Shown here: positions 31,455 to 54,308 of the stretch, piece after piece | Position numbering within the stretch: position 1 is the stretch's first letter | Layout: each line of letters opens with the position of its first letter | Assembly (NCBI GenBank): GCA_963814845.1 | Contig: CAWFEP010000003.1 | Coordinates: 223,485 to 287,484, forward strand | Source: an uncultured Actinomycetota bacterium | GTDB lineage: Bacteria; Actinomycetota; Actinomycetes; JAFAQI01 | DNA: 64,000 nt | Direction: 5' to 3' | The notes under the pieces: generated by a model | The model's database searches: none | Told to the model about the DNA's origin: nothing | The model's input: only the letters and a program-made list of their open reading frames with translations | Program-made: the position numbers and the translations under genes

Positions 31455-31490
31455 CACTTTTGGTTGGAACTGAGAGGATTCGAACCCCTG
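31455..31490 (-). repeat. 36-nt fragment matching the 3' end (acceptor/T-arm) of tRNA-Ala; probable att direct repeat of a genomic island
   Basis: tggaactgagaggattcgaacccctgaccccttgca matches 50382-50417 at 34 of 36 positions, then diverges. No D-arm or anticodon 5' half is present. Confidence 0.65.
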
Positions 31491-31516
31491 ACCCCTTGCA
31501 GATATGGCACCCGGCC

Positions 31517-34123
31517 TTACAGGCGCGGGTCGACGGGTTCCGACTCGAGCGCGAGTACGGCAAACACGCACTCGTGGACCCGCCACAGCGGCTCGCCTCG
31601 TGCCGCCCGCTCGAGGGCCTCGAGCCCGAGCGCGTACTCGCGAGCGGCCAGAGACCGCTTGTGAGCGAGCCCACGTTGGCGGAGCCGTTCGAGGTTGGCG
31701 GGTTCGGTGTAGTCCGGGCCGTAGATGATTCGCAGGTATTCACGGCCGCGGACCTTGAGGCCTGGTTGCACGACGCCCTTGCGACCGCGGGCGAAGTTGA
31801 CGGTCGGCTTGACGACCATTCCCTCGCCCCCCGTCGCGGTGAGGTCGCTCCACCACCCGGCGGCGGCATCGGTTGCGGCCGGATCCGTGGTGTCGACCAG
31901 CCGTCGCTGTGTGGTGGCGATGAGTTCGGGATCAGCCGCCGCGAGCCGGTCAGCGACCTCGAGGTGCCAGGTGTGCGGGCGGTCGTGGTACGTCGAACCT
32001 TCTGTGGCGAGCACCTGAAACACGGCGATCTTGATGCCGTCGAGCCCTTCGGTGGGCCAGCAGTAGTGCCGGTAGGCGGCGGTGAAACCGTCGGCGTTGG
32101 TCCGACGGGAACGGGTCCGGGCGAGCAGTTCGCGGACGTCAAGGCCAGCCGTCGCAGCCTGCTCGAGGGTGCCGACGGCCGCCGGCAGCGCGTTGTGGGC
32201 GGCGGCGCCGACGGCGGCGTACTGGTTCTTCAGCAGGTCGAGCGCCTTGGCGCTCCACGGCATGAGCTCCGCATCGAGGACCAGCCAGTCGGTGTTGAGC
32301 TCGTCGAACAGTCCCGCGGCGTCGGCCGCGGCGCGCAGCCGGTGGACGAGTTGCTCGGTGAGCTCGTGGCCGAAGAAGGGTCGACCGGTCCGGGTGTGGA
32401 CTGCGCCCGGCGCCCCACCGGGCGCGCCGAACCTGCGTTGTGCGGCGTCATCGGATCGGGGCACCACGAGGACCGCGCGTGATCCCATGTGCTTCTCTTC
32501 GCAGATGACCGAGTCGATGCCGTCGGCCCGATAGGCGTCGAAGGCCTGGTCCGGGTGCTCGAGGATCCCGTCGCGGGACGAGGTGGCGACCGGGCTCATC
32601 GTGGGCGGCAGGTAGACCAGCCAGCGCGGGTCTAGGGCAAACCGGCTCATCACCTCAAGTGCGGCCGCGGCGTTCTCGGCTCGAACGCTGACCCGGCCGT
32701 GGTGCTGGGTCTCGACCACCCTGGTGCCGGTGACATCAGCGATGTCGAGCACGTCCGGGTCGACTCGGCCCGCGCTTCCGTCGCCGGTGGCCGATTCGTT
32801 CACCGGGAACGGCTTGACGGGTGCGTAGTAGACCTCGGCCGCCGGCACCGAGACCAACTCTCGCTCGGGATAGCGCAGCGCGGTGAGCTGGCCGCCGAAG
32901 ACACAGCCGGTGTCCAGGCACAACGTGTTGTTCACCCACTCGGGAGCGGGGATCGGGGTGTGGCCGTACAAGACCATCGCCCGGCCGCGGTAGTCGTTGG
33001 CCCACGGGTAGCGGACCGGCAACCCGAACTCGTCGGTCTCACCAGTGGTGTCGCCGTACAGGCAGAACGACCGCACCCGACCCGAAGCTCGACCTTGATA
33101 GCGCTCGGAGATGCCGGCGTGAGCGATCACGAGTTGCCCGGCGTCGAGCACATAGTGAGAGATGAGCCCGTCGAGGAACGCCTCGACCGCGGCCCGGAAC
33201 TCGCCCGGCTCGGTCTCGAGCTGCGCGAGGGACTCGGCCAGCCCGTGAGTGATCTGCACCTTGCGGCCACGCAGAGCGCGCAGGAGTTTGTTCTCATGGT
33301 TGCCGGCGACGCACATCGCATCGCCGTCCGCGACCATCCCCATGACCAGCCGCAGGACACCCGGCGTGTCCGGCCCACGGTCGACCAGGTCGCCGACGAA
33401 CAACACCCGCCGACCGTCGGGCCGGTGAGCCCCGACGGGACGACCTCGGTCGTCACGGGCGATCAAGTAGCCGAGCTCAGCGAGCAGCTCCTCGAGCTCC
33501 GCACGACAGCCGTGGATGTCGCCGATGACGTCGAACGGTCCGGCCTCGTGGCGCAGGTCGTTATACAGCCGGTTGCGCACGATGGTTGCCGCATCGACCT
33601 CTGCCGGACCCTTGAGCACGTGGACGGTGCGGAAGCCCTCGCGCTGCAGGCCGCGAAGGCTGCGGCGCAGCATCGAGTGCTGCCGGCGGATGACGTGCTC
33701 GCCGAAGTCGCGGTCGGACCTGGCCGCGTTGCGCTCGACGCAGATCCGCTCCGGAACGTCGAGGACAATGGCGACCGGGAGTACGTCGTGGTCGCGCGCC
33801 AGGGCGACCAACGCCTTGCGTGCCTCCGGCTGCACGCTGGTCGCATCGATCACCGTCAGCCGGCCAGCGGCCAGGCGCTTGGCCGCGATGTAGTGCAGCA
33901 GGTCGAACGCGTCAGGAGTCGCCGCTTGGTCGTTCTCGTTGTCAGCGACCAGACCACGACAGAAGTCGCTGCTGATGACTTCGGTCGCGGCGAAGTTTCG
34001 GGCGGCGAACGTCGATTTGCCGGAGCCCGTCACGCCCATCAGCACGACCAGACTGAGGGCCGGCACGGCAAGCTCGCGAGGAGTGGCCTCGGTGATGCCC
34101 GAGGCCTCGAGGGTGTCGGTCAT
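31517..34123 (-). CDS. pnkp: Bacterial polynucleotide kinase-phosphatase with C-terminal ligase-like domain (Pnkp, RNA repair)
   Basis: 868-aa intact ORF. N-terminal P-loop kinase GVTGSGKST; central calcineurin-type phosphoesterase GDIHGC / GDLVDRGPD / GNHE; C-terminal nucleotidyltransferase-like domain with EEKHMGSRAV. Confidence 0.85.
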   Translation of the reverse strand: MTDTLEASGITEATPRELAVPALSLVVLMGVTGSGKSTFAARNFAATEVISSDFCRGLVADNENDQAATPDAFDLLHYIAAKRLAAGRLTVIDATSVQPEARKALVALARDHDVLPVAIVLDVPERICVERNAARSDRDFGEHVIRRQHSMLRRSLRGLQREGFRTVHVLKGPAEVDAATIVRNRLYNDLRHEAGPFDVIGDIHGCRAELEELLAELGYLIARDDRGRPVGAHRPDGRRVLFVGDLVDRGPDTPGVLRLVMGMVADGDAMCVAGNHENKLLRALRGRKVQITHGLAESLAQLETEPGEFRAAVEAFLDGLISHYVLDAGQLVIAHAGISERYQGRASGRVRSFCLYGDTTGETDEFGLPVRYPWANDYRGRAMVLYGHTPIPAPEWVNNTLCLDTGCVFGGQLTALRYPERELVSVPAAEVYYAPVKPFPVNESATGDGSAGRVDPDVLDIADVTGTRVVETQHHGRVSVRAENAAAALEVMSRFALDPRWLVYLPPTMSPVATSSRDGILEHPDQAFDAYRADGIDSVICEEKHMGSRAVLVVPRSDDAAQRRFGAPGGAPGAVHTRTGRPFFGHELTEQLVHRLRAAADAAGLFDELNTDWLVLDAELMPWSAKALDLLKNQYAAVGAAAHNALPAAVGTLEQAATAGLDVRELLARTRSRRTNADGFTAAYRHYCWPTEGLDGIKIAVFQVLATEGSTYHDRPHTWHLEVADRLAAADPELIATTQRRLVDTTDPAATDAAAGWWSDLTATGGEGMVVKPTVNFARGRKGVVQPGLKVRGREYLRIIYGPDYTEPANLERLRQRGLAHKRSLAAREYALGLEALERAARGEPLWRVHECVFAVLALESEPVDPRL

Positions 34124-35607
34124 CCGGCGATGCTCATCTCGTCGGCGTCCTTGGTGAAGACGACCATCTGAGTCGGCGGACCGACGTCGGGGTCATCGGT
34201 GCCGACCGGCAGGAACCGAGCCCCGTACGAGTACGTCGCCGCGACCCGCGCCGCCCAGTCCTGAAACTCCTGTCGGGTCCACTCGAACCGGTGGTCGCGA
34301 TGGCGCATCGCACCCGCTGTCAAGCTCTCGAAGCGGACGTTGTGCTCGACGTTCGGCGTGGTCACGATGACCGTCGTCGGAGCCGCGTCGCCGAAGACCG
34401 TGCGCTCGAGCGCTGGCAGCCGCGGCAGGTCGACGTGCTCGATCACTTCCATCAGCACCGCCGCGTCAAGACCTGCAAGCCGGTTATCCCGGTAGGTCAG
34501 TGCTGACTGCAACAGCGAGATGCGCTCGAGCTGCCGGTCGGTCATCCGATCGAGCTTGAGCCGGCGAGCCGCGACGTCCAATGCGCGAGCGGAGACGTCC
34601 GCACCGACGACATGGACGAACGCCGAGTCACCGACGAGCTTCACCAGCAAAGCGCCGTCACCGCACCCGAGATCGGCGATGCGGCGAGCACCCGAGGAAT
34701 GCAGCGCTGCGATGACCGCCCCTTGCCGCTGCTGGGCGAGCGGAACCGGACGGTCCGGCTCGTCACCGACATTTGCGGCGTCAGTCGCGTTGTCGAGGTC
34801 CTCCGGCTCGGTGTCATCGACCTCGGCGATCCGCGCAACGGCGGTCCGTACCAGGGCGGATCGATGCGAGAGGTAGCGGCGGGTGATCAGATCTCGTTCC
34901 GGATGGGTGGCCAGCCAGCCCTCCCCCGCACGGACCAATTTGTCTACCTCGTCCGTGCTCACCCAGTAGTGCTTCGCGTTGTCCAGGACCGGCAGCAGCA
35001 CGTACAGGTGGTTCAGCGCATCCGCCAGCCGGTGCGTCCCCGTGAGGCGAAGGTCGACATACCGGGAGTCGCCCCAGTCCGGGAACTGTTCGTCGAGTGG
35101 CACCGCGGCCGCCGAGACAGTCCAGCCAAGCGGATCGAACAGGCTCCTCGCCAGCTCCGTGCCTCCGCTGCAGGGAAGGGCCGGCAGGTGGATTTCAAGC
35201 GGAAGTGCCGTGGCCACGAGCTCGGGGCGAGCGTCGCACCGACCGGCCATCGCGGTCTTGAATACTCGCGACATCGCGACGGCCAGCATGCTTGACGCGG
35301 CGTACGGGCGATCGTTGACGTACTGCCGCAGCGCGAAGTCGCCACCACCGCGCCCCTTGTGCCCCCGCACCAGCCCTACCGGATCGATCTCCAGTAGCAG
35401 TGCCACGGTGCATCGGTCGTCGGCAGAGTCCGGGTAGAACACGTGGGCAACACCACTCGCGATCTCGAACGACTGGACCTTGGCCGGGTGCTTATGCAGG
35501 AGAAAGCCCAGATCGGTCGCCGGGGCCCGGGTCGTGGTCAAGGTGAGCAGCACAAGGACAGTCTCCCCTGGCAGACCTCCTTCAGCCTGAGCATTTTTCA
35601 TCAGCAA
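34120..35607 (-). CDS. hen1: Bacterial Hen1 RNA 3'-terminal 2'-O-methyltransferase
   Basis: C-terminal SAM-binding motif IADLGCGDGALL and the Hen1 metal-site motif EVIEHV. The N-terminus VLLTLTTTRAPATDLGFLLHKHP is typical of bacterial Hen1. It overlaps pnkp by 4 nt. The true start may be at ~35559. Confidence 0.8.
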   Translation of the reverse strand: MLMKNAQAEGGLPGETVLVLLTLTTTRAPATDLGFLLHKHPAKVQSFEIASGVAHVFYPDSADDRCTVALLLEIDPVGLVRGHKGRGGGDFALRQYVNDRPYAASSMLAVAMSRVFKTAMAGRCDARPELVATALPLEIHLPALPCSGGTELARSLFDPLGWTVSAAAVPLDEQFPDWGDSRYVDLRLTGTHRLADALNHLYVLLPVLDNAKHYWVSTDEVDKLVRAGEGWLATHPERDLITRRYLSHRSALVRTAVARIAEVDDTEPEDLDNATDAANVGDEPDRPVPLAQQRQGAVIAALHSSGARRIADLGCGDGALLVKLVGDSAFVHVVGADVSARALDVAARRLKLDRMTDRQLERISLLQSALTYRDNRLAGLDAAVLMEVIEHVDLPRLPALERTVFGDAAPTTVIVTTPNVEHNVRFESLTAGAMRHRDHRFEWTRQEFQDWAARVAATYSYGARFLPVGTDDPDVGPPTQMVVFTKDADEMSIAG

Positions 35608-35730
35608 CCCGCAACCTCGACGGTCAAACCGATCTGTGCGTCCTGCGTGCCCGCATCATGCGCGCCGGGTCTAACGAACGCGCAGCAAGAGTCGTCGACC
35701 ACTTTGGCGTCGCTAGTGATCGCTGCCGCG

Positions 35731-36006
35731 ATGAAGTTGAGCGCGCCGGACGACGGGCATGAAGTGACGACAGGCCCAGAACTCCAACGGGAATACAACG
35801 CCGAAGACGAGAACCCCGACCCTTGGACCTACGTCCGCGCCATCAAGGTTCAGGTCGACATGGCAACCGAGCAATACAAAGACCGCGCTTCGCACCGCCC
35901 AGCACTTTCCGCACCCGCGTCATATCGACGCTGGCACGTCTACGCCGGACTCACAATCACTTTCGCCCTCATCTTGATCGGCTGGGTCGCGATCTCGGCT
36001 CTGTAA
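35731..36006 (+). CDS. Small membrane-anchored hypothetical protein
   Basis: ~91 aa with a C-terminal TM helix GLTITFALILIGWVAISAL. The upstream part of the track ORF looks non-coding. Confidence 0.4.
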   Translation: MKLSAPDDGHEVTTGPELQREYNAEDENPDPWTYVRAIKVQVDMATEQYKDRASHRPALSAPASYRRWHVYAGLTITFALILIGWVAISAL

Positions 36007-36092
36007 CTTGGCGCGTTCGAGCCAGCAGAATTTGACGCGCCGACGCCCGGGCTGGGAGACAGCGGATCGGAAACGAACGGAAAAGTATGCGG

Positions 36093-36683
36093 TCAGCTCG
36101 CGCTTCCCGCGGAGACTTCCGGCACAGCCATCGGACTCTCGAACGCGTTGATGAGTTGCTGCTGAGTCCAGGTCGGGGAGACGAGTGCGTAAAGCTGGTC
36201 GTTGTTGCCATCCGAGAACTGGACGTACAGCGCGTTGTCCCCGGTGTTCGGCTCCGTGCCAATCCAGGTCTTCGCATTCGGATTGGTCGTGGTCACCGGT
36301 GTGGCGCCATCGGGGACACTTGAGAAGCCCACCTCGGCGTAGAGCTGAACTGGCGAGCCTGCCGTTGCTTGATACGAAATCGTGAAGCCCGCCAGCCTGA
36401 CCTTCCTGATCACCAGCGCCTTCTTGGCTGGATGAGCCGCCGGCGTTGAGGACGGGTGGTGGGGCGCCGGCCTCGCGCTCGCGCCAACCGCGGGTGTCGA
36501 GGGGTGGTTGATCTCGATGGCCGCGACGGCGGCTCCGGTCAGCACCGCTCCTGCGGCCACCGCCGGCAGGACCGTGGACAGCACCTGGCGAGGCGGGCGG
36601 GTCCGTCCGGTGTAGATCAGGCCCTCGGTCGCATCCTGAAAAGCACTCCCGAGCGAGCGGGTCAGATCGTCATCAGTCAACAT
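36093..36683 (-). CDS. Putative anti-sigma factor (membrane-spanning)
   Basis: A TM helix follows a short N-terminal cytoplasmic segment. It lies directly downstream of the ECF sigma gene and overlaps it. Confidence 0.55.
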   Translation of the reverse strand: MLTDDDLTRSLGSAFQDATEGLIYTGRTRPPRQVLSTVLPAVAAGAVLTGAAVAAIEINHPSTPAVGASARPAPHHPSSTPAAHPAKKALVIRKVRLAGFTISYQATAGSPVQLYAEVGFSSVPDGATPVTTTNPNAKTWIGTEPNTGDNALYVQFSDGNNDQLYALVSPTWTQQQLINAFESPMAVPEVSAGSAS

Positions 36684-37176
36684 GTGCGGTCTCCTGTGTA
36701 GGTGTGAGGGCGGCCCGGAGGTTGTCCAAGGCTCGTGCGGTCTGTGACTTGACGGTGCCGGTGGTGCAGCCGAGTACGGCAGCGGTCTCCTCGATGCTCA
36801 AGTCGTCGAAGTACCTGAGCACCAGGACAGTCCGCTGCCCGAGTGGGAGCCGGTGGGCCGCCCGCAGGATCGCGTCACGGTCCTCAACGCTTCCGACGTT
36901 CGGCGCGGGGAGGTCGATCTCCAGCGGTCCTTCGGCGGGTCGATGGCTCAGCTCGCGCCAACGATCCTTGGCCAGGTTGACTACCACCCGACGGGCATAC
37001 GCCTCGGGGCGATCCCGGGCTCGCCGCCACTGACGCGCGGTGCGCATCAAAGCGGTCTGGACCAGGTCCTCGGCGTGCCCTCGATCACCGCACAGCAGGT
37101 ACGCCGTACGCAGCAACCGGCTCGACGATGACAACACGAACGAGTCGAACGCGGGCCGGTCACGCCGCGAGATCAT
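36673..37176 (-). CDS. ECF-type sigma-70 family RNA polymerase sigma factor
   Basis: Region 2 DLVQTALMRTARQWRR; region 4 QRTVLVLRYFDDLSIEETAAVLGCTTGTVKSQTARAL. Confidence 0.85.
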   Translation of the reverse strand: MISRRDRPAFDSFVLSSSSRLLRTAYLLCGDRGHAEDLVQTALMRTARQWRRARDRPEAYARRVVVNLAKDRWRELSHRPAEGPLEIDLPAPNVGSVEDRDAILRAAHRLPLGQRTVLVLRYFDDLSIEETAAVLGCTTGTVKSQTARALDNLRAALTPTQETAHVD

Positions 37177-37356
37177 CGGATACCCATCGTCGTCACACCT
37201 CTACTAACGCCCACAATCCCCGCAAAGTTGTCACCGCACAGTGAGAACCTGTCGCGCGATCACGCCGCCACGCAGGGCTACCCGCCGCGAGCAGGAGGTC
37301 GCTTGCGTCGATTAGTGTCACGCCGGATCGCGAGCACCTATTTGTCTCGCTAGCGG

Positions 37357-37854
37357 CTACGACTGGTTCTCGCGAGGAGTGAATCGACGCGAGGGACTGC
37401 GGTGCTTGGTGTCGGGAAGCCACAGCCGGTGACTGATTTCGAAACGTGGACCCGACCGTGTCAGGGTTGGCATCGTCAGGACTGCTGCACCGGCTGGGTT
37501 GCGAAACTCCGCTGTGAACTCGCGATCCCTAACGCTGACGTGGACACGGGCGCCCTCCACGGGCCAGTACAGCCGAAACGGGTCCTCATCCGACCGTACG
37601 GGCCGCCGGTCGGCACCGAGACCCCGGGCCGCCCACTCGTATACCTCTTGCACTGCCAGGCGCCACTTGGTCCGCGACGGCATCGGCGGCCACGGCAGGC
37701 TTCCCAGCGGAATGCCGAACCAGCCACCGCCATCCGGGGCGCGACCATCGAACACGCGGCCGGTCAACTCCATCGATGACCCCGGTGGCATGACCGGCTC
37801 AAAACTCGCGAGGATCTCCTCGACAAGTGCAATCGGTAGCGCCCGAATGCTCAT
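37357..37854 (-). CDS. Hypothetical protein
   Basis: 165-aa ORF inside the lower-GC island with no recognisable motif. Confidence 0.45.
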   Translation of the reverse strand: MSIRALPIALVEEILASFEPVMPPGSSMELTGRVFDGRAPDGGGWFGIPLGSLPWPPMPSRTKWRLAVQEVYEWAARGLGADRRPVRSDEDPFRLYWPVEGARVHVSVRDREFTAEFRNPAGAAVLTMPTLTRSGPRFEISHRLWLPDTKHRSPSRRFTPRENQS

Positions 37855-37977
37855 TGGTGCAAGTGTCCCATTCGGCGCACGCGATCCTCAGCGTTCAGCG
37901 GCTGCGAGCGCACGGCAGAGCCAGACCATTGCGCCGAAGAACGGCACTCATGCGCGGTCGGCCACCGCAGAGTACGA

Positions 37978-38400
37978 CTAGTGGCAGCCGACTGTCGTAG
38001 CTCGCGTTCCTGCTGCTGCCGGCGGGAGGATGCCGCGTATCGCGTTGTCCAGCTTGCACTTGGTGTCGACATACCCGGCTGGCTTCGAGCCCGGACGAGT
38101 GATGATGACCAATGCAGCGCATCGATACCCAGTAATCACCGTGCCGCTTGCGATGCGCTTGGCGTGCACCACCGTCACTCGGTAGTCGAGGTCTAGCGGG
38201 TCCATGCAGTCAACATGGGACGCCTCGGGAAGCGCTGCGATCAGGCTGAAGACTCGCTCGGATTGCGATCGGGTGAGGTCCACCGACACCGCACCAGATG
38301 TCTTGAACACCGTCACTGACCTGTATCCGGTGAGTTGGGCGGCGGGTGGCGATCCACCCGCACAGGACGACACAACGACCACTAAGCCGACAGCAGCCAT
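37978..38400 (-). CDS. Putative lipoprotein
   Basis: Signal peptide with lipobox AAVGLVVVVSSC. Start chosen at the internal Met; the track start is at 38493. Confidence 0.5.
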   Translation of the reverse strand: MAAVGLVVVVSSCAGGSPPAAQLTGYRSVTVFKTSGAVSVDLTRSQSERVFSLIAALPEASHVDCMDPLDLDYRVTVVHAKRIASGTVITGYRCAALVIITRPGSKPAGYVDTKCKLDNAIRGILPPAAAGTRATTVGCH

Positions 38401-38559
38401 CCGAGGTAAGACCTTCACCAAGTCAGACTCCCACGACAGACCGGCGCCTTCGGTACCACAAATCGGGGAACCAAACCTGCGCGCGCGGCACATCGCGATC
38501 GGCTCTGGTGCCTACACAAATAGTGGTTCTTTGCACCGTGAGCCTGCCAGGCTGTTCGG

Positions 38560-39156
38560 GTGACGACATTTGATGAGGACGGGGTTCCAACTCTCACGTG
38601 GGGGATCAGTGCCTCGCACAACCCGTCCGAGCTCGTCGTCCCGTTGTATGTGCGTGACCGGCTCGGGCTGCGAACAACGACAAACGTTCCGGCGCTGTCG
38701 CCGCGCGTGCGAGCTATCCCGAGCAAGGATCTCGACGTCGCGTCCGCGTCGGCGTCATGGGACCGCGTGTGGGAGGTGATCACCCTCGATCTAGATGGCT
38801 ACTCCCCGTTCACACCGGCGCGGTTCTACGGCCTGACCGCGCACCCGGGATTGATCGGGCCGTGGACGTTGCTCTACGAGGAAGCCTGCGCCTGGGTGGC
38901 TGCGCTTCCCGGGGGCAGGGAGTTGGTAGCGCGCGAGAAACGTCACCCGCTACACGTCCAGATGCTTGTGGAGAATCTTGAGAACGAGCTGGGGCGACCC
39001 GTCAAGCCATTCCATCTGGAGTTCACGGTTCTGCCCGTCGACGGAGTCTGGTGGGACCGCACGGCTGACGGTCGCGTCTATCTCTCCGACGCGCTTGTTG
39101 CAAACACCGACACGTACACGTCTGTGTTACGGCAGCTTCTTGAACCCATTGCCTGA
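38560..39156 (+). CDS. Hypothetical protein
   Basis: 198-aa ORF in lower-GC DNA with no motif. Confidence 0.5.
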   Translation: MTTFDEDGVPTLTWGISASHNPSELVVPLYVRDRLGLRTTTNVPALSPRVRAIPSKDLDVASASASWDRVWEVITLDLDGYSPFTPARFYGLTAHPGLIGPWTLLYEEACAWVAALPGGRELVAREKRHPLHVQMLVENLENELGRPVKPFHLEFTVLPVDGVWWDRTADGRVYLSDALVANTDTYTSVLRQLLEPIA

Positions 39157-39195
39157 CGCCTCATCGAACGCTCGGGAACGACGGATCGAGTGCGC

Positions 39196-40502
39196 GCGAG
39201 CGGCAGGGATGTTGACTGGTGACGTTCTCCCGCCCGGCCTGACTCGAATGAGCGGCCGGCACCTTTCGAGGTTGTCCTGTAGGTGATCCGTCGACCGGGC
39301 GGGAGAACACCTTTGCACGTACCGCTGGTGGGAGTGACCTAGTAGGAGCCTGGTCTAGAGGCCCCGTCCCTGTCCTGTCCGACCTTCGGCTGTGCGTGCC
39401 TGCCCTGCTCATACGACTGAGAGGACCGGCGTGACCACGATTGCATCTACGACGCTCAATGTCATTGGGGGTGTGGACACGCATGCGGATGTTCATGTCG
39501 CTGCGGCGTGTGACCAGCTCGGTTCGGTGCTCGGGGTTGAGTCCTTCCCGACGACGCCGCGTGGTTACCGGTCGCTGCTGGCCTACCTGCGCGGGTTCGG
39601 TCCGCTGGCGAAGGTCGGGGTGGAGGGCACCGGTTCCTACGGTGTCGGGTTGGCGCGGCATCTCGCGCGTGAGGGTGTTGAGGTGATTGAGGTGAACCGG
39701 CCGAACCGTCAGGTCCGTCGCCGGCACGGCAAGACCGATGTGGTCGATGCGATCGCGGCGGCTCGAGCGGTGATCAATGGGGACGCGACCGGGCGCCCGA
39801 AAAGTCATGACGGTGGGGTGGAATCGTTGCGGGTGCTCACGATGGTGCACCGCAGCGCGAACAAGTCACGCACCCAGGCGTTGAACCAGATCCGGGACCT
39901 GATCACGACCGCACCCGAGCAGCTGCGCACCGAACTGCGGGAACTGAAGCGTCCCGCGCTGCTCGCGACCTGCGCGGCGTTCCGGCCGGCTGACCGTGAC
40001 GACCTGGCCACCGTCACGAAACTGTCACTGCGCGGGCTGGCGCGTCGATCATCGACCTCGACGACGAACTCGTCATGCTCGACGCCCGCCGCCGGCGGAT
40101 CACCACCACCATCGCACCCGAGCTCTGCGCCGCGTTCGGGGTCGGCCCCGACACCGCCGCCGGGCTGCTGATGGCCGCCGGTGACAACCCGCAACGTCTG
40201 CGCAACGAACAGTCCTGGGCGGCGCTGCTCGGGTCCAACCCGATCGAAGCGTCATCAGGCAAGATCGTGCGGCACCGGCTCAACCGCGGCGGTGACCGGC
40301 AAGGAAACAGCGCCCTATGGCGGATCGTGTTCGTCCGGATGGGCAACGACCCCACCACCAAGGCCTACGTCGAACGACGTACCAAAGAAGGCAAAACCAA
40401 GTCCGAGATCATGCGATGCCTCAAGCGCTACGTCGCCCGCGAAACCTTCGACCTACTGCCCCGCGAACTCCAAATTTGACAGTAGGAGCATCACCTATTC
40501 GA
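39196..40502 (+). mobile_element. IS110-family insertion sequence, copy 1 (~1.3 kb)
   Basis: Nucleotide identity with copy 2 begins at gcgcgcgagcggcag and ends at aatttgacagtaggagcatcacct. It encodes a DEDD-type IS110 transposase and has no terminal inverted repeats. Confidence 0.8.
39392..40479 (+). CDS. IS110-family transposase; 1-nt deletion near 40050 relative to copy 2
   Basis: NVIGGVDTHADVHVAA is the DEDD transposase N-terminus. The two track ORFs 39392-40171 and 40075-40479 join into a protein identical in pattern to copy 2. Confidence 0.75.
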
Positions 40503-41019: not shown

Positions 41020-42326
41020 GCGCGCGAGCGGCAGGGATGTTGACTGGTGACGTTCTCCCGCCCGGCCTGACTCGAATGAGCGGCCGGCACCTTTCGAGGT
41101 TGTCCTGTAGGTGATCCGTCGACCGGGCGGGAGAACACCTTTGCACGTACCGCTGGTGGGAGTGACCTAGTAGGAGCCTGGTCTAGAGGCCCCGTCCCTG
41201 TCCTGTCCGACCGTTGGCTGTGCGTGCCTGCCCTGCTCATGTGACTGAGAGGACCGGCGTGACCACGATTGCATTAACGACGCTCAATGTCATTGGGGGT
41301 GTGGACACGCATGCGGATGTTCATGTCGCTGCGGCGTGTGACCAGCTCGGTTCGGTGCTCGGGGTTGAGTCCTTCGCGACGACGCCGCGTGGTTACCGGT
41401 CGCTGCTGACCTACCTGCGCGAGTTCGGTCCGCTAGCGAAGGTCGGAGTCGAAGGCACCGGTTCCTACGGTGTCGGGTTGGCGCGGCATCTCGCGCGTGA
41501 GGGTGTTGAGGTGATTGAGGTGAACCGGCCGAACCGTCAGGTCCGTCGCCGGCACGGCAAGACCGATGTGGTCGATGCGATCGCGGCGGCTCGAGCGGTG
41601 ATCAATGGGGACGCGACCGGGCACCCGAAAAGTCATGACGGTGGGGTGGAATCGTTGCGGGTGCTCACGATGGTGCACCGCAGCGCGAACAAGTCACGCA
41701 CCCAGGCGCTGAACCAGATCCGGGACCTGATCACCACCGCACCCGAGCAGCTGCGCACCGAACTGCGAGAACTGAAGCGTCCCGCGCTGCTCGCGACCTG
41801 CGCGGCGTTCCGGCCCACCGACCGTGACGACCTGGCCACCGTCACGAAACTGTCACTGCGCGGGCTAGCGCGTCGCATCATCGACCTCGACGACGAACTC
41901 GTCATGCTCGACACCCGCCGCCGGCGGATCACCACCACCATCGCACCCGAGCTCTGCGCCGCGTTCGGGGTCGGCCCCGACACCGCCGCCGGGCTGCTGA
42001 TGGCCGCCGGTGACAACCCGCAACGTCTGCGCAACGAACAGTCCTGGGCGGCGCTGCTCGGGTCCAACCCGATCAACGCGTCATCAGGCAAGATCGTGCG
42101 ACACCGGCTCAACCGCGGCGGTGACCGGCAAGGAAACAGCGCCCTATGGCGGATCGTGTTCGTCCGGATGGGCAACGACCCCGTCACCAAGGCTTACGTC
42201 GAACGACGTACCAAAGAAGGCAAAACCAAGACCGAGATCATGCGATGCCTCAAACGCTACGTCGCCCGCGAAACCTTCGAACTACTCCCACGCGAACTCC
42301 GAATTTGACAGTAGGAGCATCACCTC
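41020..42326 (+). mobile_element. IS110-family insertion sequence, copy 2 (~1.3 kb)
   Basis: Near-identical to copy 1 over the whole length, in direct orientation 517 bp downstream. Confidence 0.8.
41214..42308 (+). CDS. IS110-family transposase (intact, 364 aa)
   Basis: Carries the DEDD_Tnp_IS110 N-terminus and the C-terminal transposase_20 domain LLGSNPINASSGKIVRHRLNRGGDRQGN. Confidence 0.85.
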   Translation: MAVRACPAHVTERTGVTTIALTTLNVIGGVDTHADVHVAAACDQLGSVLGVESFATTPRGYRSLLTYLREFGPLAKVGVEGTGSYGVGLARHLAREGVEVIEVNRPNRQVRRRHGKTDVVDAIAAARAVINGDATGHPKSHDGGVESLRVLTMVHRSANKSRTQALNQIRDLITTAPEQLRTELRELKRPALLATCAAFRPTDRDDLATVTKLSLRGLARRIIDLDDELVMLDTRRRRITTTIAPELCAAFGVGPDTAAGLLMAAGDNPQRLRNEQSWAALLGSNPINASSGKIVRHRLNRGGDRQGNSALWRIVFVRMGNDPVTKAYVERRTKEGKTKTEIMRCLKRYVARETFELLPRELRI

Positions 42327-44273: not shown

Positions 44274-44774
44274 TCAAGCACTCGGCCCTTCCCAAAACAG
44301 TTCGAGCTGGATGTTGTCCGGATCCCGAAAGGTGATCATTCGATTCGCGGTGTAGGCGGGGGACTTCACACCTGAGTGAGTCACGCCGAGCTCGTCGAGC
44401 CAACTCGCCCAACCGTCTAACTCATCGCCCGCTGAAACGAAGAACTCAACGTGGTCAAGCCCGGCTCGTGTCTCGTTGAAAGGCTCACCGCTGTTCTGGC
44501 CATGGCTCAGCAGACAGAGGGTGAAGCCGGAGTGGCTGTCCTGAAGGCAGATCTGCTGGACCAGACCTTCGACATCCATCTGCTGTCCAGTGACTTCGAA
44601 GCCGAAGACACTCTGGTACCAAGCGGCACTCACCACCGGATCACGGACCGTGAGAATCAAGCCAATCCGACCATTGATCGCGGGCATGGCCGAAGTCTGC
44701 CGCAAGGGGGCTTGTTGGGTCACCCGCGCGCCGAACCGAGGTGCCGTTATCGGGCGGGTGGTCGGCATGATCAT
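44274..44774 (-). CDS. VOC (glyoxalase/bleomycin-resistance/dioxygenase) family protein
   Basis: A VOC-fold protein with the motif HVEFFV. The start codon is uncertain. Confidence 0.6.
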   Translation of the reverse strand: MIMPTTRPITAPRFGARVTQQAPLRQTSAMPAINGRIGLILTVRDPVVSAAWYQSVFGFEVTGQQMDVEGLVQQICLQDSHSGFTLCLLSHGQNSGEPFNETRAGLDHVEFFVSAGDELDGWASWLDELGVTHSGVKSPAYTANRMITFRDPDNIQLELFWEGPSA

Positions 44775-45248
44775 TACCTCGCACACGTGCCTGTGAGAGA
44801 TGATGGGCCGGTGCCGGACGCTCACCGACAATTCCGCGTGGTCACAGGAGTAGCGAGAGTGACGCTCGCCCTAAGAAAGGAGGGCTGTCGAACCCCTTGA
44901 CGCTGCCGACCTCGAGCATCACCTTCAGGTTTGTGGACGGACCGAACACCGGAGCTGGAACGGTCGCCATCCTGGACATCATTGGCGGATCGGAGATCGC
45001 GGCCAGGACGGTGGCCGATCCCGGTGACGTTCCCGATGCTCCTGAGGGCGAGGACTTCGGTTCCAGACGCTTCGAGTTGTGGGCGGGGCGACCGATCGGC
45101 GAGGCTGTCGTCACTGCCTTCGATGAGCGCTCATAGGCCGATAGTCCCGCCGCGCAGAGGCGACGTTCTGCGCGCGGCAGGGGCTCGACGTTCTCGATTG
45201 GTATGCGGAAAGATCCAACTAGAGGCTCGTTATCCGCGTCTGTCAGTC

Positions 45249-45939
45249 ATGAGGTTCCTTCGAGTCGGTTTACTTGCCGCGATCGTTCTGTTGCCTGCCT
45301 GCTCGGGACCGTTGCAGCCGGTCGCCGCACCGGAGAACCCCGTCGGGTCGAGCGCGGGGACGTCCGGCTTGATCGGGGAGCCATCGGTGTCACCTGCTCG
45401 GTCCAACCGGTCGATGACAGGCGGGTTGAAGCCATCGCGACAGGTCGAACGTGTCGTCGCTTCCAAGGTGTTCGGCGGGTGCTCTCGTTGTTTCCTTCCA
45501 ATACTTGGATGCGGGAACGATGGACTCCTACGGCGCGATCCAGGTGGTGAACGCAGGCAAGGCCGCGTGCCGGATATTACGGAATCTGACAGTACGAACA
45601 CGAGGCGAGGGACCAATGCCGCGACTGACGAGTGTCCGAGGAGCCGTCTCCCGTCAGCAAGCAGTTCTCAAGCCCGGTAGCGCGCTGCGGGCGGCTACGG
45701 GCACGGTGCCTGACAACTTGTTGCACGCGCGAGGTTGCAACGCTGCCACGAAGGTCGAAGTGCACGTTGAGGGCATGAGGCCTCCCATCGCGATACCAGT
45801 GTCATCCCTGCACGGTAAGTCGCGACTCATCCTGCACTTCTGCCACGTACGGATGACAGTTGGACCGCTCCGAAGCGCCCACCGCGGACGTGAAACGCCC
45901 AGTGAGCAGTCACCGCATCCTTACAGCGACCAGAGGTGA
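45249..45939 (+). CDS. Putative lipoprotein (hypothetical); 1 frameshift near 45450
   Basis: Lipobox MRFLRVGLLAAIVLLPACSG. The body continues in the frame of track ORF 45451-45939. Confidence 0.4.
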
Positions 45940-46246
45940 CGTTATCCGACAGTCGATGACCGTGGCGCGAAAGATGAATAACGGGTCCCCTCTGCGCGGT
46001 TTGATGATCCTGAATCAGGCGGGCTTGTGCCCGGGCATGGGATTCTTGTCGTAGATTCCGATGGGTGACGTTGATCGGTAGTGCTGAAGGGGCTATCAGC
46101 ACCGACTTCGCGATTATGAATGCCCACCAAACGAGCGCGCATTAGGAACTCAGCGGGCCAATGGCGTTCGCGACCTCTCACCCGGGGTTTGTCGACTTGA
46201 TCTGCGGCACCAAGTATGCCGAGGTCTCAGTCCCGGTTGGAGGTCC

Positions 46247-47170
46247 ATGACGTGGTGCCCGGAGCCGGCGGGCTATGAGGATAGCGACGAGGTTCCGTGG
46301 CGAGGGGTCGATGACGGCCCGGTCGTCATCGCCGGATTCGACTATGACCAACCGGTCGCGTCGCTCGACGTGAACGACATCGATCCGACTCGGGTTCGGA
46401 TCTGTGCGTCGGGCCGTTACCGCTTTGACTACGACGACGCAAGCGAGGGTCTGCCGCCTGAAAAGTGGCTACTGCAGTTCTGGCCAGACCATGACGGAAC
46501 CGATGAGCTGTATCGACGGCCGAGACGCATGGGTGGGCCGCCTCCGTTCTCGCTGAGGTTTTCATCGGCGTGGCTTACAGCCATGCACGCCTGGCGCAGT
46601 GCGGGTTGGCCGGCGCTGCTGGGCTCCATCCGCAGCGTGCACTGGGTACGGGTGCCGCTGATCCGGGAGCAACGGCCACTGACCGCCGAGGAGCTCTCCG
46701 TTGCTGGCGACACCTCGGGTGCGTTACCTGCGCACGACGCGGAACTACTCGCGCCCGCGTTCGGCACGGTCGACTCCTGGGGATCGCTCATCGAGGCTAT
46801 GAACCGGGTCGGCCTGTTGGCTGTGGTCCCGACCGCTGACGGTCCTGCCTTCCTGCCCAACCCTGCGCCGCCACCCGTGTGGACCGTCGTCGACATGGAC
46901 GACAGCCGAGCCGAACACCTCAAACGCAGAGCACAGATCCAGGTCTATGGGACCTACGTGCCCGACATTGAGCAGCTAGTCCGCTGGAGCCCGGCGCCGT
47001 TCACCGCCACCCCACGAATGATCGCAGTCCGGCTCGCACTACCAGTCGACGATATCGTCGAGACGCTTCGCCTTGTGGACCTCACCGACCCGGGTCGGGT
47101 TCAAGGCGACCTCGACGACCTCGACTTGCCCATCACGATCGCACCTCCTCCAGACCCGGCCAACCGCTGA
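46247..47170 (+). CDS. Hypothetical protein
   Basis: 307-aa ORF with no motif. Confidence 0.5.
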   Translation: MTWCPEPAGYEDSDEVPWRGVDDGPVVIAGFDYDQPVASLDVNDIDPTRVRICASGRYRFDYDDASEGLPPEKWLLQFWPDHDGTDELYRRPRRMGGPPPFSLRFSSAWLTAMHAWRSAGWPALLGSIRSVHWVRVPLIREQRPLTAEELSVAGDTSGALPAHDAELLAPAFGTVDSWGSLIEAMNRVGLLAVVPTADGPAFLPNPAPPPVWTVVDMDDSRAEHLKRRAQIQVYGTYVPDIEQLVRWSPAPFTATPRMIAVRLALPVDDIVETLRLVDLTDPGRVQGDLDDLDLPITIAPPPDPANR

Positions 47171-47222
47171 AGCGCGAGCAAGCGCTTACTTAGAAGGCTG
47201 GATCAAGTGTGCTGGACCGGCA

Positions 47223-47651
47223 CTACTGATCGTTGCTTAGTCGACGGCCGAACCAGCCAGAATCCCGATCTTGAGGCGGATCGGCAGACCGGTCACGCAG
47301 GTAGTTCGGGGTCCGATCAAGTCGACGGACAACGAGCCGGTCGGGGAACTTAATCTCGACTCGTTGACCGCCGATCTCCCAGCGACATCCCCAAAACGGA
47401 CCCATCATCAGTATCGGCACGGGGCTGTCGCCGACCGTCACCGCATCTGGCACACCATCGTGAACCCGGCCCCACACGAATCGGTGTCCGGCAGTGATGT
47501 CTGCATTCTGTTCGACCGGCCACCAGTCATCAGGCTCAAGTTCAATGGCCCCCGCTCGCTCGTCAGCTAGCTGATCGGGCGAGACTTCGCGACATAGGCC
47601 GTCTTCACGCTGTTGAAGAATGCAGTCGCCAAGGTCAAGGCTCTGAATCAC
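47223..47651 (-). CDS. Hypothetical protein
   Basis: 142-aa ORF with no motif. Confidence 0.4.
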   Translation of the reverse strand: MIQSLDLGDCILQQREDGLCREVSPDQLADERAGAIELEPDDWWPVEQNADITAGHRFVWGRVHDGVPDAVTVGDSPVPILMMGPFWGCRWEIGGQRVEIKFPDRLVVRRLDRTPNYLRDRSADPPQDRDSGWFGRRLSNDQ

Positions 47652-47798
47652 GACCGCACGATAACGCCTGATGTCCGAGTCCGAGCGGCTTTTCAGTTCG
47701 AGTACCGCGTGGGTCCTTCGTGAGGAAGCGAGATCACTCCGGTCGGTCCCCGACCTGATCTAGACCCGCAGGAGCGGCATCCGAGCCTTCGCCTGTCC

Positions 47799-48215
47799 CT
47801 ACCCGGTTCGCAGGGTGACGATCGTGGTGTCTGACAGTGTCGGTTGGTTGAGGGTCACGACCACGGTGTAAAACACGAGGTCCGCGGTGCAGCCTCGGTG
47901 CGGCGATGTGATCGGGATGACTAAGGTTCCGTGAGGTCGACTGGCGGTCCTCGCAACGGGTGGGCATGAGCTGCTGCCACCCATCGCGAACTCAACGCTG
48001 TCCGGTGAAAGGACGATCGCCCCGTGATCGCGCAATCGACGCGCAACGCCAAGGTGGGCGGTTGAACGGCGTACGGCCAGCGATCCGCCGGCGGCCTCGG
48101 TGGGTGCCGACGCGACGTGATGTGCCGGTGCCGCACCGGGCTGAGTCGCGTGACCACCAGAGCATGATGCCAATGCCGTCACCGCGAGCCCTGCCACCGC
48201 TAGCGCCCTGTACAT
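47799..48215 (-). CDS. Putative lipoprotein
   Basis: Signal peptide with lipobox LAVTALASCSGG. Confidence 0.5.
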   Translation of the reverse strand: MYRALAVAGLAVTALASCSGGHATQPGAAPAHHVASAPTEAAGGSLAVRRSTAHLGVARRLRDHGAIVLSPDSVEFAMGGSSSCPPVARTASRPHGTLVIPITSPHRGCTADLVFYTVVVTLNQPTLSDTTIVTLRTG

Positions 48216-48755
48216 GCTCTATAGACTCCTAGCGCCGTCGAACGGTTCCGAGGACGCATTCAGTCAGCGTCCCACGCAGAGGCCGCGTCCCGGCCGCATC
48301 TAGCGGCTTGTATCGGTCGTAGGAGACTCAGCCTTGACGAACCCCCATGTCAGAGCGTTCTCCGAGCGCGACCTACGCGTCAGTTAGGTTCGCCCAGCCG
48401 CTTTGGTCCGCCGTAGCAAGTAGAGTCCGCCAACCACCGCGACACAGGCAACAAACAGCAGCAACCAACCCGCCAGAACCAACGACCGTTTGTCCGGCGA
48501 ACCCATGTATCCCGCCGCTAACAGCCATCCTGCGACCACCGTGATCGGCGCAGCGACCTACACCACAGCGACACAAACCGGGTGCGCCTGCCGTAGGTCT
48601 CGCGCCGTCGCCACGACGACAATCATGCCTCAGATGTTGTGCGGCAACGCCGCATCGAGTGCGCGCGAACGAAGGCACTTCAGTTCGGTTGCGATCCTGA
48701 GATATCGCCTGGCGAAGTGCGCCGGTTTGGACTCGTCGGTTCGATCCGACGATCC

Positions 48756-50006
48756 TCAGGAAAGGGGTGAGCCGACGGTGTAAGCGATGCGCGGCTTGGC
48801 GCTCGCAGGCACGAGGTAGGCGTCGCTTACGTGTGTCGACGCCACGCCCGTGCTTACCCGCTTCCAGTGGCTTCCGACGAACACTTCCTCCCGCACTTGA
48901 CCTTCGATCCAGCCGTGCACACGGCGAGCCGGTCTGATGAAGGTCGCATAGACCCGGTCGCCGACCGTGGCGAATGAGACCGAGAAGTCTCCTGCCGTGG
49001 TGCCGGGCAGCGGGTGAGTTGCGGACACGGTCCCGCCCGTACTTACTACGGCGTACCGCGGTCGCAGTGTCGAGCTGGGATGGCTGATGCGGAACCGGTC
49101 AATCGCAAGGAAGTACCGGCCGCCGGGCTCTGGCGCCAGCGGTGCGGCGATCGTGTCTAGGTAACCCGCCGGTGGATGGGTTGCCACCACAGGCTGCGGA
49201 GTCGACCAGGTGCCGCCTGATTGCTGCTTGCTGAAGTACAGATCGACCCGGCCGTCATTCTCGTCAGCGCCGGAGCCGCTCAGCTTCTCGAGCACGGCGG
49301 TGAGATGGCCGACCGTGCGCCCGAGCAGTCCCTCGAGCAGATATTCGGTGCCGGCGATGAGATTGGTGCCGGGCAGGTCGGTCGCAGCGATCCGGAAAGG
49401 GTGGCCGGGTGTGCCGACGAACAACGTATTGCCCTCATCGGGTGCGGGCGTGTCGTCCGACGCGGTGACGATGGCCATCTGACGACCCGCAAGGCCGTCC
49501 AAAGCCCGCACCACTGTGTCCCCGTTCGAGCAGAGACCGCGGCCGACGTCGGCGTCCACAAACGGCTTCAGCCGGCGGGCTCCAACAGGGGTCGATGAGG
49601 CAACAACACCACCGCACTCCATGGCGACGGTGTCGATGCGGGTGCCATCACCGGACAGCTCCATGATCGGACTGTGCTGGGTGCCGACTCCCAGCTGCAA
49701 GGTGTGCTGAGTGGTTCGACCGGTCCGCGGATCATGCACGTAGTAGGCCAGAGCGCGCGGATACGGGTTGCCGCCGAGAATCGTCCGTATCGCGTGCACC
49801 CGGTGCTGGTCGTCGACAACCACCGCGGTAAGACCGGGATGTGCGAACACCCGGCCCACGCCCGTCAGGTAGAAGCCCTGCGCCAAACCCGAATGTGAGC
49901 TTCGCGTCGAGGCATGCGACGCGATCGGCGCTGCGACCACACCGGCCACGCCGACCGCGCTCGCCGTCACGGCGACCACCCTGCGGCGCCAACTAGTGCG
50001 TTTCAT
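48756..50006 (-). CDS. Secreted hypothetical protein
   Basis: 416 aa with N-terminal signal peptide RRRVVAVTASAVGVAGVVAAPIASHA. Confidence 0.55.
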   Translation of the reverse strand: MKRTSWRRRVVAVTASAVGVAGVVAAPIASHASTRSSHSGLAQGFYLTGVGRVFAHPGLTAVVVDDQHRVHAIRTILGGNPYPRALAYYVHDPRTGRTTQHTLQLGVGTQHSPIMELSGDGTRIDTVAMECGGVVASSTPVGARRLKPFVDADVGRGLCSNGDTVVRALDGLAGRQMAIVTASDDTPAPDEGNTLFVGTPGHPFRIAATDLPGTNLIAGTEYLLEGLLGRTVGHLTAVLEKLSGSGADENDGRVDLYFSKQQSGGTWSTPQPVVATHPPAGYLDTIAAPLAPEPGGRYFLAIDRFRISHPSSTLRPRYAVVSTGGTVSATHPLPGTTAGDFSVSFATVGDRVYATFIRPARRVHGWIEGQVREEVFVGSHWKRVSTGVASTHVSDAYLVPASAKPRIAYTVGSPLS

Positions 50007-50381
50007 CTATCTGTCCCATCTGGGCGAGTCCGGTGAGACTCACCTACGTACCTAACGGCCGGGCACACCACCAGGTTGACGACTGCCCTGAGATTGTTGT
50101 GACAGTCAGCCCGACCAGCCACCCGATCCAGAACAAGTAGCCGGCTATGCGCGCCTTAGCGAACGACCTAAGCAAACTAATCGCGACTATCTGTCGGCCG
50201 TTGCCAACCATCCTCGCGCGAACGCCTCGGCGGTCTTTGCGAGCGGATAACAGCCCTGACAGCCCGGAGTCAGCGGGGCTCGCTGCGGTCGGTGTCCAGC
50301 GGTGCCTAGCGCGCATGGCGCCCAGTTCGGAAACCCGCAGGACCAAGATCGTTGATCATGGCCCTGACCTGCACCTTTGAG

Positions 50382-50454
50382 TGGAGCTGAGGGGATTCGA
50401 ACCCCTGACCCCTTGCATGCCATGCAAGTGCGCTACCAGCTGCGCCACAGCCCC
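50382..50454 (-). tRNA. tRNA-Ala (anticodon GGC)
   Basis: The reverse complement folds as a cloverleaf: acceptor GGGGCTG, D-arm GCGCAGCTGGTAGCGC, anticodon stem-loop CTTGC-ATGGCAT-GCAAG (anticodon GGC), and T-arm GGGGTTCGAATCCCC. It has the G3:U70 Ala identity pair. Confidence 0.85.
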
Positions 50455-54293: not shown

Positions 54294-54308
54294 TTCGCTT
54301 GCCGGCCA

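Follow-up and report, generated by a model that had tools for sequence, protein, structure and literature searches.

The tRNA-Ala(GGC) gene and the second copy of its 3' end

The window, i.e., the complete stretch of 64,000 nucleotides analysed here, contains an intact tRNA-Ala(GGC) gene on the minus strand at positions 50382..50454 (lower boundary at 50381/50382). Its identity, already proposed by a sequence-only reading of this DNA, was confirmed by ARAGORN as well as by the Rfam model RF00005 with a score of 66.2 bits. The 3' end of the gene points towards an interval of 18.9 kb, and at the far side of this interval a second copy of the tRNA end is found: bases 31465-31500 reproduce its 3'-terminal 36 nt with 34 identical positions and in the same orientation. 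The sequence-only reading had reported identity and orientation of this copy correctly, but had placed it ten bases too low, at 31455-31490. No other Rfam family is found at this site. As a 3' fragment located downstream of the tRNA in the same orientation, it lies on the correct side for a displaced 3' end.

A weaker similarity continues past the tRNA 3' end and extends the match to a repeat pair of 51 nt (45/51; 51 nt at 88% in the repeat search). The proximal, attL-like repeat on the minus strand at 50367..50417, aligned by eye, comprises the final 36 nt of the tRNA and a downstream tail of 15 nt, while the distal, attR-like repeat on the minus strand at 31450..31500 carries the displaced tRNA-Ala fragment and was delimited by repeat search and alignment. 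The similarity in the 15-nt tail is common to both copies in the window and does not occur in the tRNA flanks of two relatives (L002, L003). Zero chance matches to the 36-nt tRNA end are expected (100 shuffles), and no third copy of the fragment was found in the window. According to the alignment, the distal fragment starts with the final anticodon-loop base, followed by the 3' part of the anticodon stem. Its two deviations, both C-to-T changes in tRNA sense, affect the T-stem and the acceptor stem, respectively, and are stem-breaking, as expected of an unselected relic.

The distal repeat is situated between the convergent genes of an M20 peptidase, which ends at 31355, and Pnkp, which ends at 31517. 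The sequence running downward from window position 31464, past the distal fragment, begins ACCAAAAGTGCACGTTGGCC... Folding of this strand reveals a 15-bp hairpin directly after the fragment (31421..31459, minus strand), which lacks a U tract and gave a negative result in the terminator scan. It may have served as the tRNA's own original terminator, or else terminate transcription from both sides.

Gene content and composition of the interval

The distal end of the interval is occupied by two genes for RNA repair, both on the minus strand. Pnkp (31517..34123) carries kinase, phosphatase and ligase domains (PF16542, 1.7e-184, together with AAA_33 and Metallophos), and the RNA 2'-O-methyltransferase Hen1 (34120..35607; PF12623, 1.9e-119) overlaps it by 4 nt; the coordinates of hen1 are those of the maximal open reading frame, whose homologues are called at 478 aa. 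The pair resembles the bacterial Pnkp-Hen1 RNA repair system in forming an overlapping two-gene operon with full domain sets, including Hen1_L and the methyltransferase domain; a related RNA repair system is the Pnkp1-Rnl-Hen1 complex (PMC4411300). In the window the system is cargo or neighbour rather than the island feature itself. With a GC content of 68.2%, GC3 values of 0.85 (Pnkp) and 0.80 (Hen1) and typical codon usage, this distal part of 4.1 kb is compositionally native, and the operon looks native as well. Pnkp homologues with 88-90% identity are located at other loci in relatives, and two contigs (L005, L006) match the window with 82-84% nucleotide identity over 31511-35571 only, at two other loci. 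An exact-sequence look-up of the two proteins returned no record, which is due to differing start codons.

Since the tRNA-Ala 3'-half copy lies in sense orientation 17 nt past the stop codon of pnkp, it might be taken for a co-transcribed tRNA-half mimic, serving hen1-pnkp as substrate, decoy or 3'-end stabiliser, rather than for a mere scar. We regard this as barely conceivable: the fragment is absent from the Pnkp 3' flanks of both contigs mentioned above, and the stem-breaking substitutions count against it, too. The close placement is most likely a coincidence.

The remaining part, from 35.6 to 50.4 kb, holds accessory genes. For the gene content of the interval as a whole, the sequence-only reading is largely borne out (Hen1 and Pnkp, the ECF sigma factor, both IS110 copies, GNAT, VOC/glyoxalase). 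Its anti-sigma factor is less certain. The ECF sigma factor (36673-37176, minus strand) shows Sigma70_r2 and r4_2 domains; the ORF overlapping it downstream (36093-36683, minus strand) matches nothing in Pfam, NCBIfam or PADLOC and may be an anti-sigma factor, judging by its position and a membrane segment. Three ORFs without family assignment follow within 37357..39156, encoding 165 aa (minus strand), a lipoprotein-like product of 171 aa (minus strand) and 198 aa (plus strand), with GC3 values of 0.70-0.75. An IS110-family element is present twice on the plus strand. Copy A (39192..40496) has its DEDD_Tnp_IS110 and Transposase_20 domains in separate ORFs, as a 1-nt indel splits the transposase by a frameshift, whereas copy B (41020..42325) encodes an intact transposase of 364 aa (41214-42308). 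Both are 97.3% identical over 1306 nt with one gap; a tandem duplication was rejected, as only the 1306-nt IS bodies match. Pfam scans of the ORFs further assign a GNAT protein (42417-43019, plus strand) and a VOC/glyoxalase protein (44274-44831, minus strand).

Between the latter two, homologue searches characterise hyp328 (43248-44234, minus strand) as a rare protein: 9 homologues exist among 5.8 billion proteins, the best non-self hit shows 60% identity, and one homologue (L008) sits among serine and tyrosine recombinase genes. Within 45451..50006 lie the gene of a DUF4232 protein, two ORFs with lengths of 307 and 142 aa, a lipoprotein-like ORF of 138 aa and the gene of a secreted protein of 416 aa; this segment has the lowest GC3 of the interval (0.60-0.77). 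The secreted protein is very rare, too: a set of 1.84 billion representatives contains 7 clusters related to it. No Pfam family was detected in any frame of 46200-50382. NCBIfam and PADLOC yielded nothing significant for 10 unassigned ORFs and thus offer no defence or toxin assignment.

The description of the whole interval as a lower-GC island holds for a part of it only. In bulk GC, the interval as a whole (64.8%) is close to the left flank (65.4%), the right flank reaching 71.4%, and its distal 4.1 kb are native-like. Only the segment 35.6-50.4 kb is atypical, with 63.9% GC and, when 16 genes located at ~36-50 kb are compared with 25 genes of the left flank, a GC3 of 0.74 vs 0.81 (Mann-Whitney p=7.5e-6). 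The codon usage of these 16 genes is atypical as well. No compositional step was observed at the distal repeat, and the interval does not differ from its flanks throughout, as a compositional definition of a genomic island would have it.

Recombinase search and the locus in related genomes

The claim that no recombinase is present withstood all searches. ORF scans, six-frame Pfam scans (with X put in place of stop codons) and an integrase HMM detected neither a tyrosine nor a serine recombinase in the interval or in the whole window. PF00589 occurs in no ORF, nor in the six-frame translations of 35608-39192, 43020-46200 and 46200-50382. The HMM, built from 6 integrases, found no match in the six-frame window. 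As a positive control, 5 integrases beside tRNA-Ala copies scored 2e-17 to 6e-32. The sole phmmer match (50309-50464) was rejected, as it comes from translating across the tRNA and not from an integrase. The ORF and six-frame Pfam scans likewise revealed no genes or remnants for excision, phage functions, replication or conjugation; relaxases, FtsK-like proteins, Rep families, a Tra (FtsK/SpoIIIE) plus Rep module and phage structural genes were all absent from the Pfam results. A model of tandem islands with a third tRNA fragment further left was rejected, as positions 1-31 kb contain neither a further copy nor an integrase.

On the side of the tRNA, the core block rne-rplU-rpmA-obg-proB-proA-AAA-VWA-nadD-lytR-rsfS-HisPhos-tRNA-Ala is kept in L002, L003, L009, L011 and the P0017 contig, with the tRNA at the same locus 97-99% identical in L003 and L011 and a tRNA-Ala(GGC) also present there in L002 and L009. 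The DNA beyond the tRNA is different and unrelated in each of these five relatives, all of which lack the interval at this place. We regard the 3' flank of tRNA-Ala(GGC) as a general hot spot where genomes of this lineage vary. The relatives with usable contigs share 66-91% amino-acid identity, and none closer than ~90% has a contig long enough for an empty-site comparison. At such distances the variable DNA after the tRNA could also stem from ordinary rearrangement, and sec348, the gene 5' of the tRNA, is variably present among the relatives, too.

The distal side is rearranged. The M20 peptidase gene left of the distal repeat also occurs in L001 and L004, where it is followed by a homologue of the gene at window positions 1-942; relative to both, the window carries an inversion of ~30 kb, with junctions at ~1030 and 31356-31450, one end of which lies no more than 100 nt from the distal repeat. 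Because of this inversion an empty site could not be reconstructed. The junction of the tRNA flank to position 31449 exists in no relative (66-91% amino-acid identity), and M20 scans of genome contigs and of metagenome contigs retrieved one distant locus each, with 66% identity, neither of which is an empty site. An inverted repeat that might underlie the inversion was not found between 800-1200 and 31300-31600. An integrase-mediated inversion was rejected, since the 51-nt repeat is intact.

Origin of the interval and comparison with known systems

Implementing these observations, we classify the 18.9-kb interval as a decayed, mosaic, CIME-like island associated with a tRNA gene, which is an already known kind of element. 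The repeats were probably left by an insertion of the tyrosine-integrase type into tRNA-Ala(GGC), with an immobile mosaic as what remains today. The repeat with its geometry, the lack of recombinases, the composition, the variable locus and the rare cargo are observed; the role of an integrase in making the repeat and the sequence of the later events are inferred. The 51-nt repeats 31450-31500 and 50367-50417 would then be the attR-like and attL-like scars of an insertion that targeted the 3' part of the tRNA gene, beginning with the anticodon loop and reaching to its end. The incoming element would have rebuilt the tRNA, leaving the former 3' fragment beyond its opposite border, and integration and transfer genes would have been lost later. 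The resulting mosaic would consist of ~15 kb of atypical, rare accessory genes (35.6-50.4 kb, with the ECF sigma pair, lipoproteins, secreted proteins, GNAT, VOC and DUF4232), of one IS110-family element inserted twice, and of the native-like Hen1-Pnkp operon at the distal end, which may have come from a close relative or may have been placed there by rearrangement. With the recombinase gene gone, the interval appears as an ordinary, immobilised and reshuffled genomic island. As a remote possibility, an incoming element whose integrase is specific for tRNA-Ala might still mobilise it in trans.

The sequence-only reading had likewise seen the attL/attR footprint of a tRNA-integrated element and suggested a decayed, immobilised island. 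Geometry, start site, variability of the locus and rare cargo speak for the former, and the missing recombinase next to an att-like repeat pair for the latter; what is not supported is the single, uniform lower-GC unit. That the interval entered as one foreign, lower-GC island in a single acquisition and merely lost its integrase is fairly unlikely, although a single repeat pair brackets it entirely and both IS elements and accessory genes lie inside. Its composition is uneven, with a distal Hen1-Pnkp part of higher GC and typical codon usage; only this part is similar to contigs of relatives, where it resides at two other loci, and in bulk GC the interval matches the left flank. The same native-like operon, placed differently in relatives, might suggest the opposite, namely that no island was imported at all: the repeat would be an old integration scar whose DNA is mostly gone, and the present content native variable DNA moved beside the tRNA by chromosomal rearrangements. 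The inversion ending close to the distal repeat and the variability of sec348 would fit such a course of events. We nevertheless consider it unlikely in view of the 16 genes at 36-50 kb, which differ from the 25 left-flank genes in GC3 and codon usage, the extreme rarity of homologues of hyp328 and the secreted 416-aa protein, and the clustering of the IS110 copies in the same region.

Doubts might also be directed at the fragment itself, as no recombinase vouches for the mechanism. That it arose without site-specific recombination, as a partial duplication of the tRNA gene or as a sequence resembling a tRNA by chance, is very unlikely given that no chance match is expected, that side and orientation are correct, and that the fragment starts where integrase-associated tRNA-Ala fragments start. 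Furthermore, the similarity runs past the tRNA end into sequence that is not found in the tRNA flanks of relatives.

Beyond annotation, the significance of the interval is slight. In a poorly sampled group of soil Actinomycetota (Mycobacteriales/Frankiales-like MAGs), it marks the tRNA-Ala(GGC) gene, with which the obg-proBA-nadD-rsfS core block ends, as a variable locus, and it illustrates cleanly how an att scar in a tRNA can outlast its integrase. Islander and other automated tools that depend on an integrase would overlook the interval, while composition-based tools would put its distal border ~4 kb off.

Islander defines tDNA-integrated genomic islands, accepts only candidates that contain a tyrosine integrase gene and regards the islands as "putatively active" (Hudson et al. 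2015, PMC4383910). As in these islands, both ends in the window are marked by an intact tRNA and a displaced cognate 3' fragment, located downstream in the same orientation; the fragment starts at the anticodon-centred sublocation, which is a known crossover site like the T-stem, and the length is typical. The interval differs in that it lacks a tyrosine integrase gene and is not putatively active. It also qualifies neither as a prophage nor as an actinomycete integrative conjugative element.

The start site is in good agreement with IMG/VR proviruses at tRNA-Ala genes (L012, L016, L018, L019, and L017 with L020), which share the same 28-nt tRNA-Ala 3' end with the window. This 28-nt end occurs at 9 loci in viral contigs, in which the exact 36-nt repeat is absent. 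Partial tRNA-Ala copies beside tyrosine integrases at five IMG/VR loci start as the copy in the window does, i.e., in the anticodon loop or stem (L012, L016, L019, L020), and L017 and L020 belong to a single 38-kb provirus, of which they form the two ends, each with the repeat. A Phage_integrase ORF is located within ~1 kb of each provirus copy, whereas the window contains neither integrase nor phage genes.

The definition of cis-mobilizable elements (CIMEs) comes from Firmicutes, where they are decayed ICEs or IMEs whose mobilisation by accretion was experimentally shown. Compared with them, the repeats in the window are diverged (45/51), and remnants of a parent ICE, IME or prophage were not found. 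The interval shares with CIMEs the att-like repeats, the absence of integration and transfer genes, and a decayed cargo accompanied by IS elements.

The tRNA-Ala gene and its displaced partial copy

The only tRNA gene that ARAGORN and Rfam detect in the window is tRNA-Ala(GGC), which occupies 50381/50382-50454 on the minus strand, with its 3' end facing lower coordinates. A search of the window with its last 36 nt returned one further copy in the same orientation, with two mismatches; in 100 shuffles no match to this 3' end was obtained by chance. The sequence-only reading had recognised this copy, which exists, and had placed it at 31455-31490; the correct position is 31465-31500, a shift of 10 nt. 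Gapless extension yields a repeat of 51 nt (45/51 identical; 31450-31500 versus 50367-50417) that takes in about 15 nt past the tRNA 3' end, and low-stringency BLAST found no third copy in the window. From the anticodon loop, of which it takes in just the last base, identity continues through the 3' anticodon stem, the variable loop, the T-arm and the acceptor strand.

The distal copy sits between two convergent genes, an M20 peptidase (ending at 31355) and Pnkp (ending at 31517), and matches no other Rfam family. Its two substitutions, both C-to-T in tRNA sense, affect the T-stem and acceptor stem, which is what an unselected relic would be expected to show. The similarity of the 15-nt tail is common to both window copies and missing from the tRNA flanks of two relatives (L002, L003), which would fit an attP resembling the attB flank. 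Directly after the displaced fragment, between the same convergent genes, lies a 15-bp hairpin (AAGTGCACGTTGGCC...GGCCACGACGTGCACTT; 31421-31459) without a U tract.

As a control, IMG/VR was searched with the 28-nt 3' end of tRNA-Ala. Nine viral loci matched, five of which carry partial tRNA-Ala copies likewise beginning within the anticodon loop or stem. A Phage_integrase ORF is located at most about 1 kb from the partial copy in L012, L016, L019 and L020, and beside the full tRNA in L018 (scores of 2e-17 to 6e-32). A single 38-kb provirus accounts for both L017 and L020, which are its ends: one carries the full tRNA, the other the fragment.

Gene content and composition

The first 26 kb hold one DUF222 protein and otherwise ordinary genes for metabolism, transport and c-di-GMP signalling, followed at 26-31.4 kb by ABC transporter and M20 peptidase genes. 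The DUF222 protein (19703-20989) tops the left flank in GC3 (0.88) and is located amid the c-di-GMP signalling genes; in actinobacteria, members of its family are often joined to HNH endonucleases. Amidohydro_3 is present in a second, fragmented copy (3202-3969 and 4101-4586; 62-67% identity to the orthologue of 24292-25920 in the MAG L001), which adjoins a truncated-looking ABC ATPase ORF (2484-3065); these ORFs, within 2256-4586, are likely pseudogenes of a duplicated transporter/amidohydrolase cluster.

The interval between the repeats (31501-50366) comprises Pnkp (31517-34123), Hen1 (34120-35607), a possible anti-sigma ORF with an ECF sigma factor (36093-37176), three ORFs without assignment, and the IS110 copies A (39192-40496, frameshifted) and B (41020-42325), which share 97.3% identity over 1306 nt. 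GNAT, a rare 328-aa protein (hyp328; 43248-44234, minus strand), VOC, DUF4232 and further secreted or lipoprotein ORFs without assignment extend to 50006. On the right follow a secreted 348-aa protein (sec348), His_Phos, RsfS, LytR, NadD, VWA-CoxE, an AAA ATPase, ProA, ProB, Obg, L27 and L21, which from His_Phos onwards are core genes.

Only nine homologues of hyp328 occur among 5.8 billion proteins, one of them from the source genome itself (100%) and the next best at 60%; for the secreted 416-aa protein adjoining the tRNA, 1.84 billion representatives include seven related clusters. One hyp328 homologue (L008) is found amid a large serine recombinase, an HTH_17 protein, Phage_integrase, HNH, an M78 peptidase and HsdM, and another (L021) adjoins a DUF4232 protein, with mobility genes absent. 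The Logan contig L007 (ERR10755945) is 100% identical to 42299-44756. One of its ends lies inside IS110 copy B, and the other (1-536) carries 536 nt beyond the 44756/44757 junction that resemble nothing in the window, so that the contig is either chimeric or a strain variant within the island. The hyp328-VOC pair is bracketed by an imperfect inverted repeat of 41 nt (71% complementary; 43150-43190 and 44708-44748), whose right arm stops 8 nt short of the L007 divergence point, 44756.

The absence of a recombinase, already proposed from the sequence, was borne out. ORFs of the interval match no tyrosine or serine recombinase family, and ten ORFs without assignment gave nothing significant against NCBIfam and PADLOC. 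The sigma factor, VOC and DUF4232 were the sole matches in six-frame translations with masked stops (35608-39192, 43020-46200 and 46200-50382). All 64 kb were also searched in six frames with an HMM built from six tyrosine integrases and, by phmmer, with a large serine recombinase; neither search found anything, and the lone apparent match is the tRNA sequence read as protein.

A lower GC content of the island, also claimed there, holds for its 36-50 kb genes and not for the interval as a whole. GC3 is 0.74 +/- 0.05 in these 16 genes versus 0.81 +/- 0.04 in 25 left-flank genes (Mann-Whitney p=7.5e-6). Their codon usage is less typical too, relative to a reference that is the flank genes themselves and of which the GC3 comparison is independent. 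Bulk GC amounts to 64.8% in the interval versus 65.4% in the left flank (1-31449), with 68.2% in Pnkp/Hen1 (31501-35607), 63.9% in the rest (35608-50366) and 71.4% in the right flank (50455-64000); thus, it is the core block at the right, rather than the island borders, that makes the largest GC step in the window. With GC3 values of 0.85 and 0.80, respectively, Pnkp and Hen1 look native by composition. The core block at 54000-62500 reaches 72-75% GC, far above the rest of the window, and its AAA (MoxR-like) gene (56412-57272) has a GC3 of 0.98.

Comparison with relatives

The nearest named matches are MAGs of Mycobacteriales, Frankiaceae and Jatrophihabitans, and the group of the organism is poorly sampled. 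Anchoring on VWA-CoxE gave five relatives at 87-90% identity: L002, L003, L009, L011 and the P0017 contig. Each has the block rne-rplU-rpmA-obg-proB-proA-AAA-VWA-nadD-lytR-rsfS-HisPhos, which for P0017 is known from gene calls alone. In the four loci with readable DNA, tRNA-Ala(GGC) follows, with or without a 348-aa protein in between. The DNA after the block differs in each: three Vgb_lyase/fn3 genes in L002, an ABC transporter and a two-component system in L003, bioA/F/D in P0017, and unique sequence in L009 and L011, both of which stop 126-243 nt past the tRNA. The five lack any match to window 1-50 kb, which marks the 3' flank of the tRNA as a variation hot spot; at the evolutionary distance of these relatives, such variation does not prove that the particular interval 31501-50366 was inserted. 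The 5' side is variable too, as sec348 (50496-51542, between His_Phos and the tRNA; GC1 0.53, 61.9% GC) is patchy: a homologue occurs in L002 (14959-16044, 45% identity) and apparently in L009 (16549-17625; nucleotide matches and a 358-aa ORF without assignment at the same position), and it is missing from L003, L011 and the P0017 contig.

Homologues of Hen1-Pnkp show 87-91% identity. In L005 the pair is flanked by Usp and an aldo-keto reductase, and in L006 (5163-9199) it starts 44 nt past an intact tRNA-Met (5045-5119). Nucleotide similarity of both loci to the window (82-84%) is restricted to 31511-35571, so that the neighbourhood differs per genome, and the operon either came in from a close relative or was shifted by rearrangement. 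Its window counterpart stops 17 nt short of the tRNA-Ala half-copy; that a tRNA-repair operon adjoins tRNA sequence in both L006 and the window is probably a coincidence.

The distal flank appears rearranged. In L001 and the metagenome contig L004, the amidohydrolase-ABC-M20 block directly precedes a homologue of a DppB-like permease (81-84% identity; stretches 10001-12180 and 905-2879, respectively), which in the window occupies 1-942 of the opposite strand. The palindrome upstream of the permease (ACTGTCAACA...GTTGACAGT; about 960-1000), a putative operator, is conserved. An inversion of about 1030-31450 in the lineage of the window would be the simplest account. Its right end falls less than 100 nt from the distal repeat, and a search for an inverted repeat marking its two ends found none. 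As the 51-nt repeat is intact, the att core is not the inversion breakpoint. With the flank rearranged in this way, none of the available genomes offers the empty site that the sequence-only reading had suggested looking for, in which the tRNA flank would run on directly into the DNA beyond the distal repeat.

Origin of the interval

From these observations, we consider it fairly probable that the repeat pair is an attL/attR scar of an element inserted at tRNA-Ala(GGC), and that the content is a mosaic. A tyrosine-integrase-type insertion would have generated the scar, and the inserted element would then have lost all integration and transfer genes. The present content would combine rare accessory genes of atypical composition (about 15 kb) and two IS110 insertions with a native-like RNA-repair operon. 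The main uncertainty is which share of it came with the scar-making element. The Islander definition of tDNA genomic islands, which needs a tyrosine integrase gene inside the candidate, does not admit the interval. A tRNA-Ala scar with mosaic content is a known kind of feature, found here in a new lineage.
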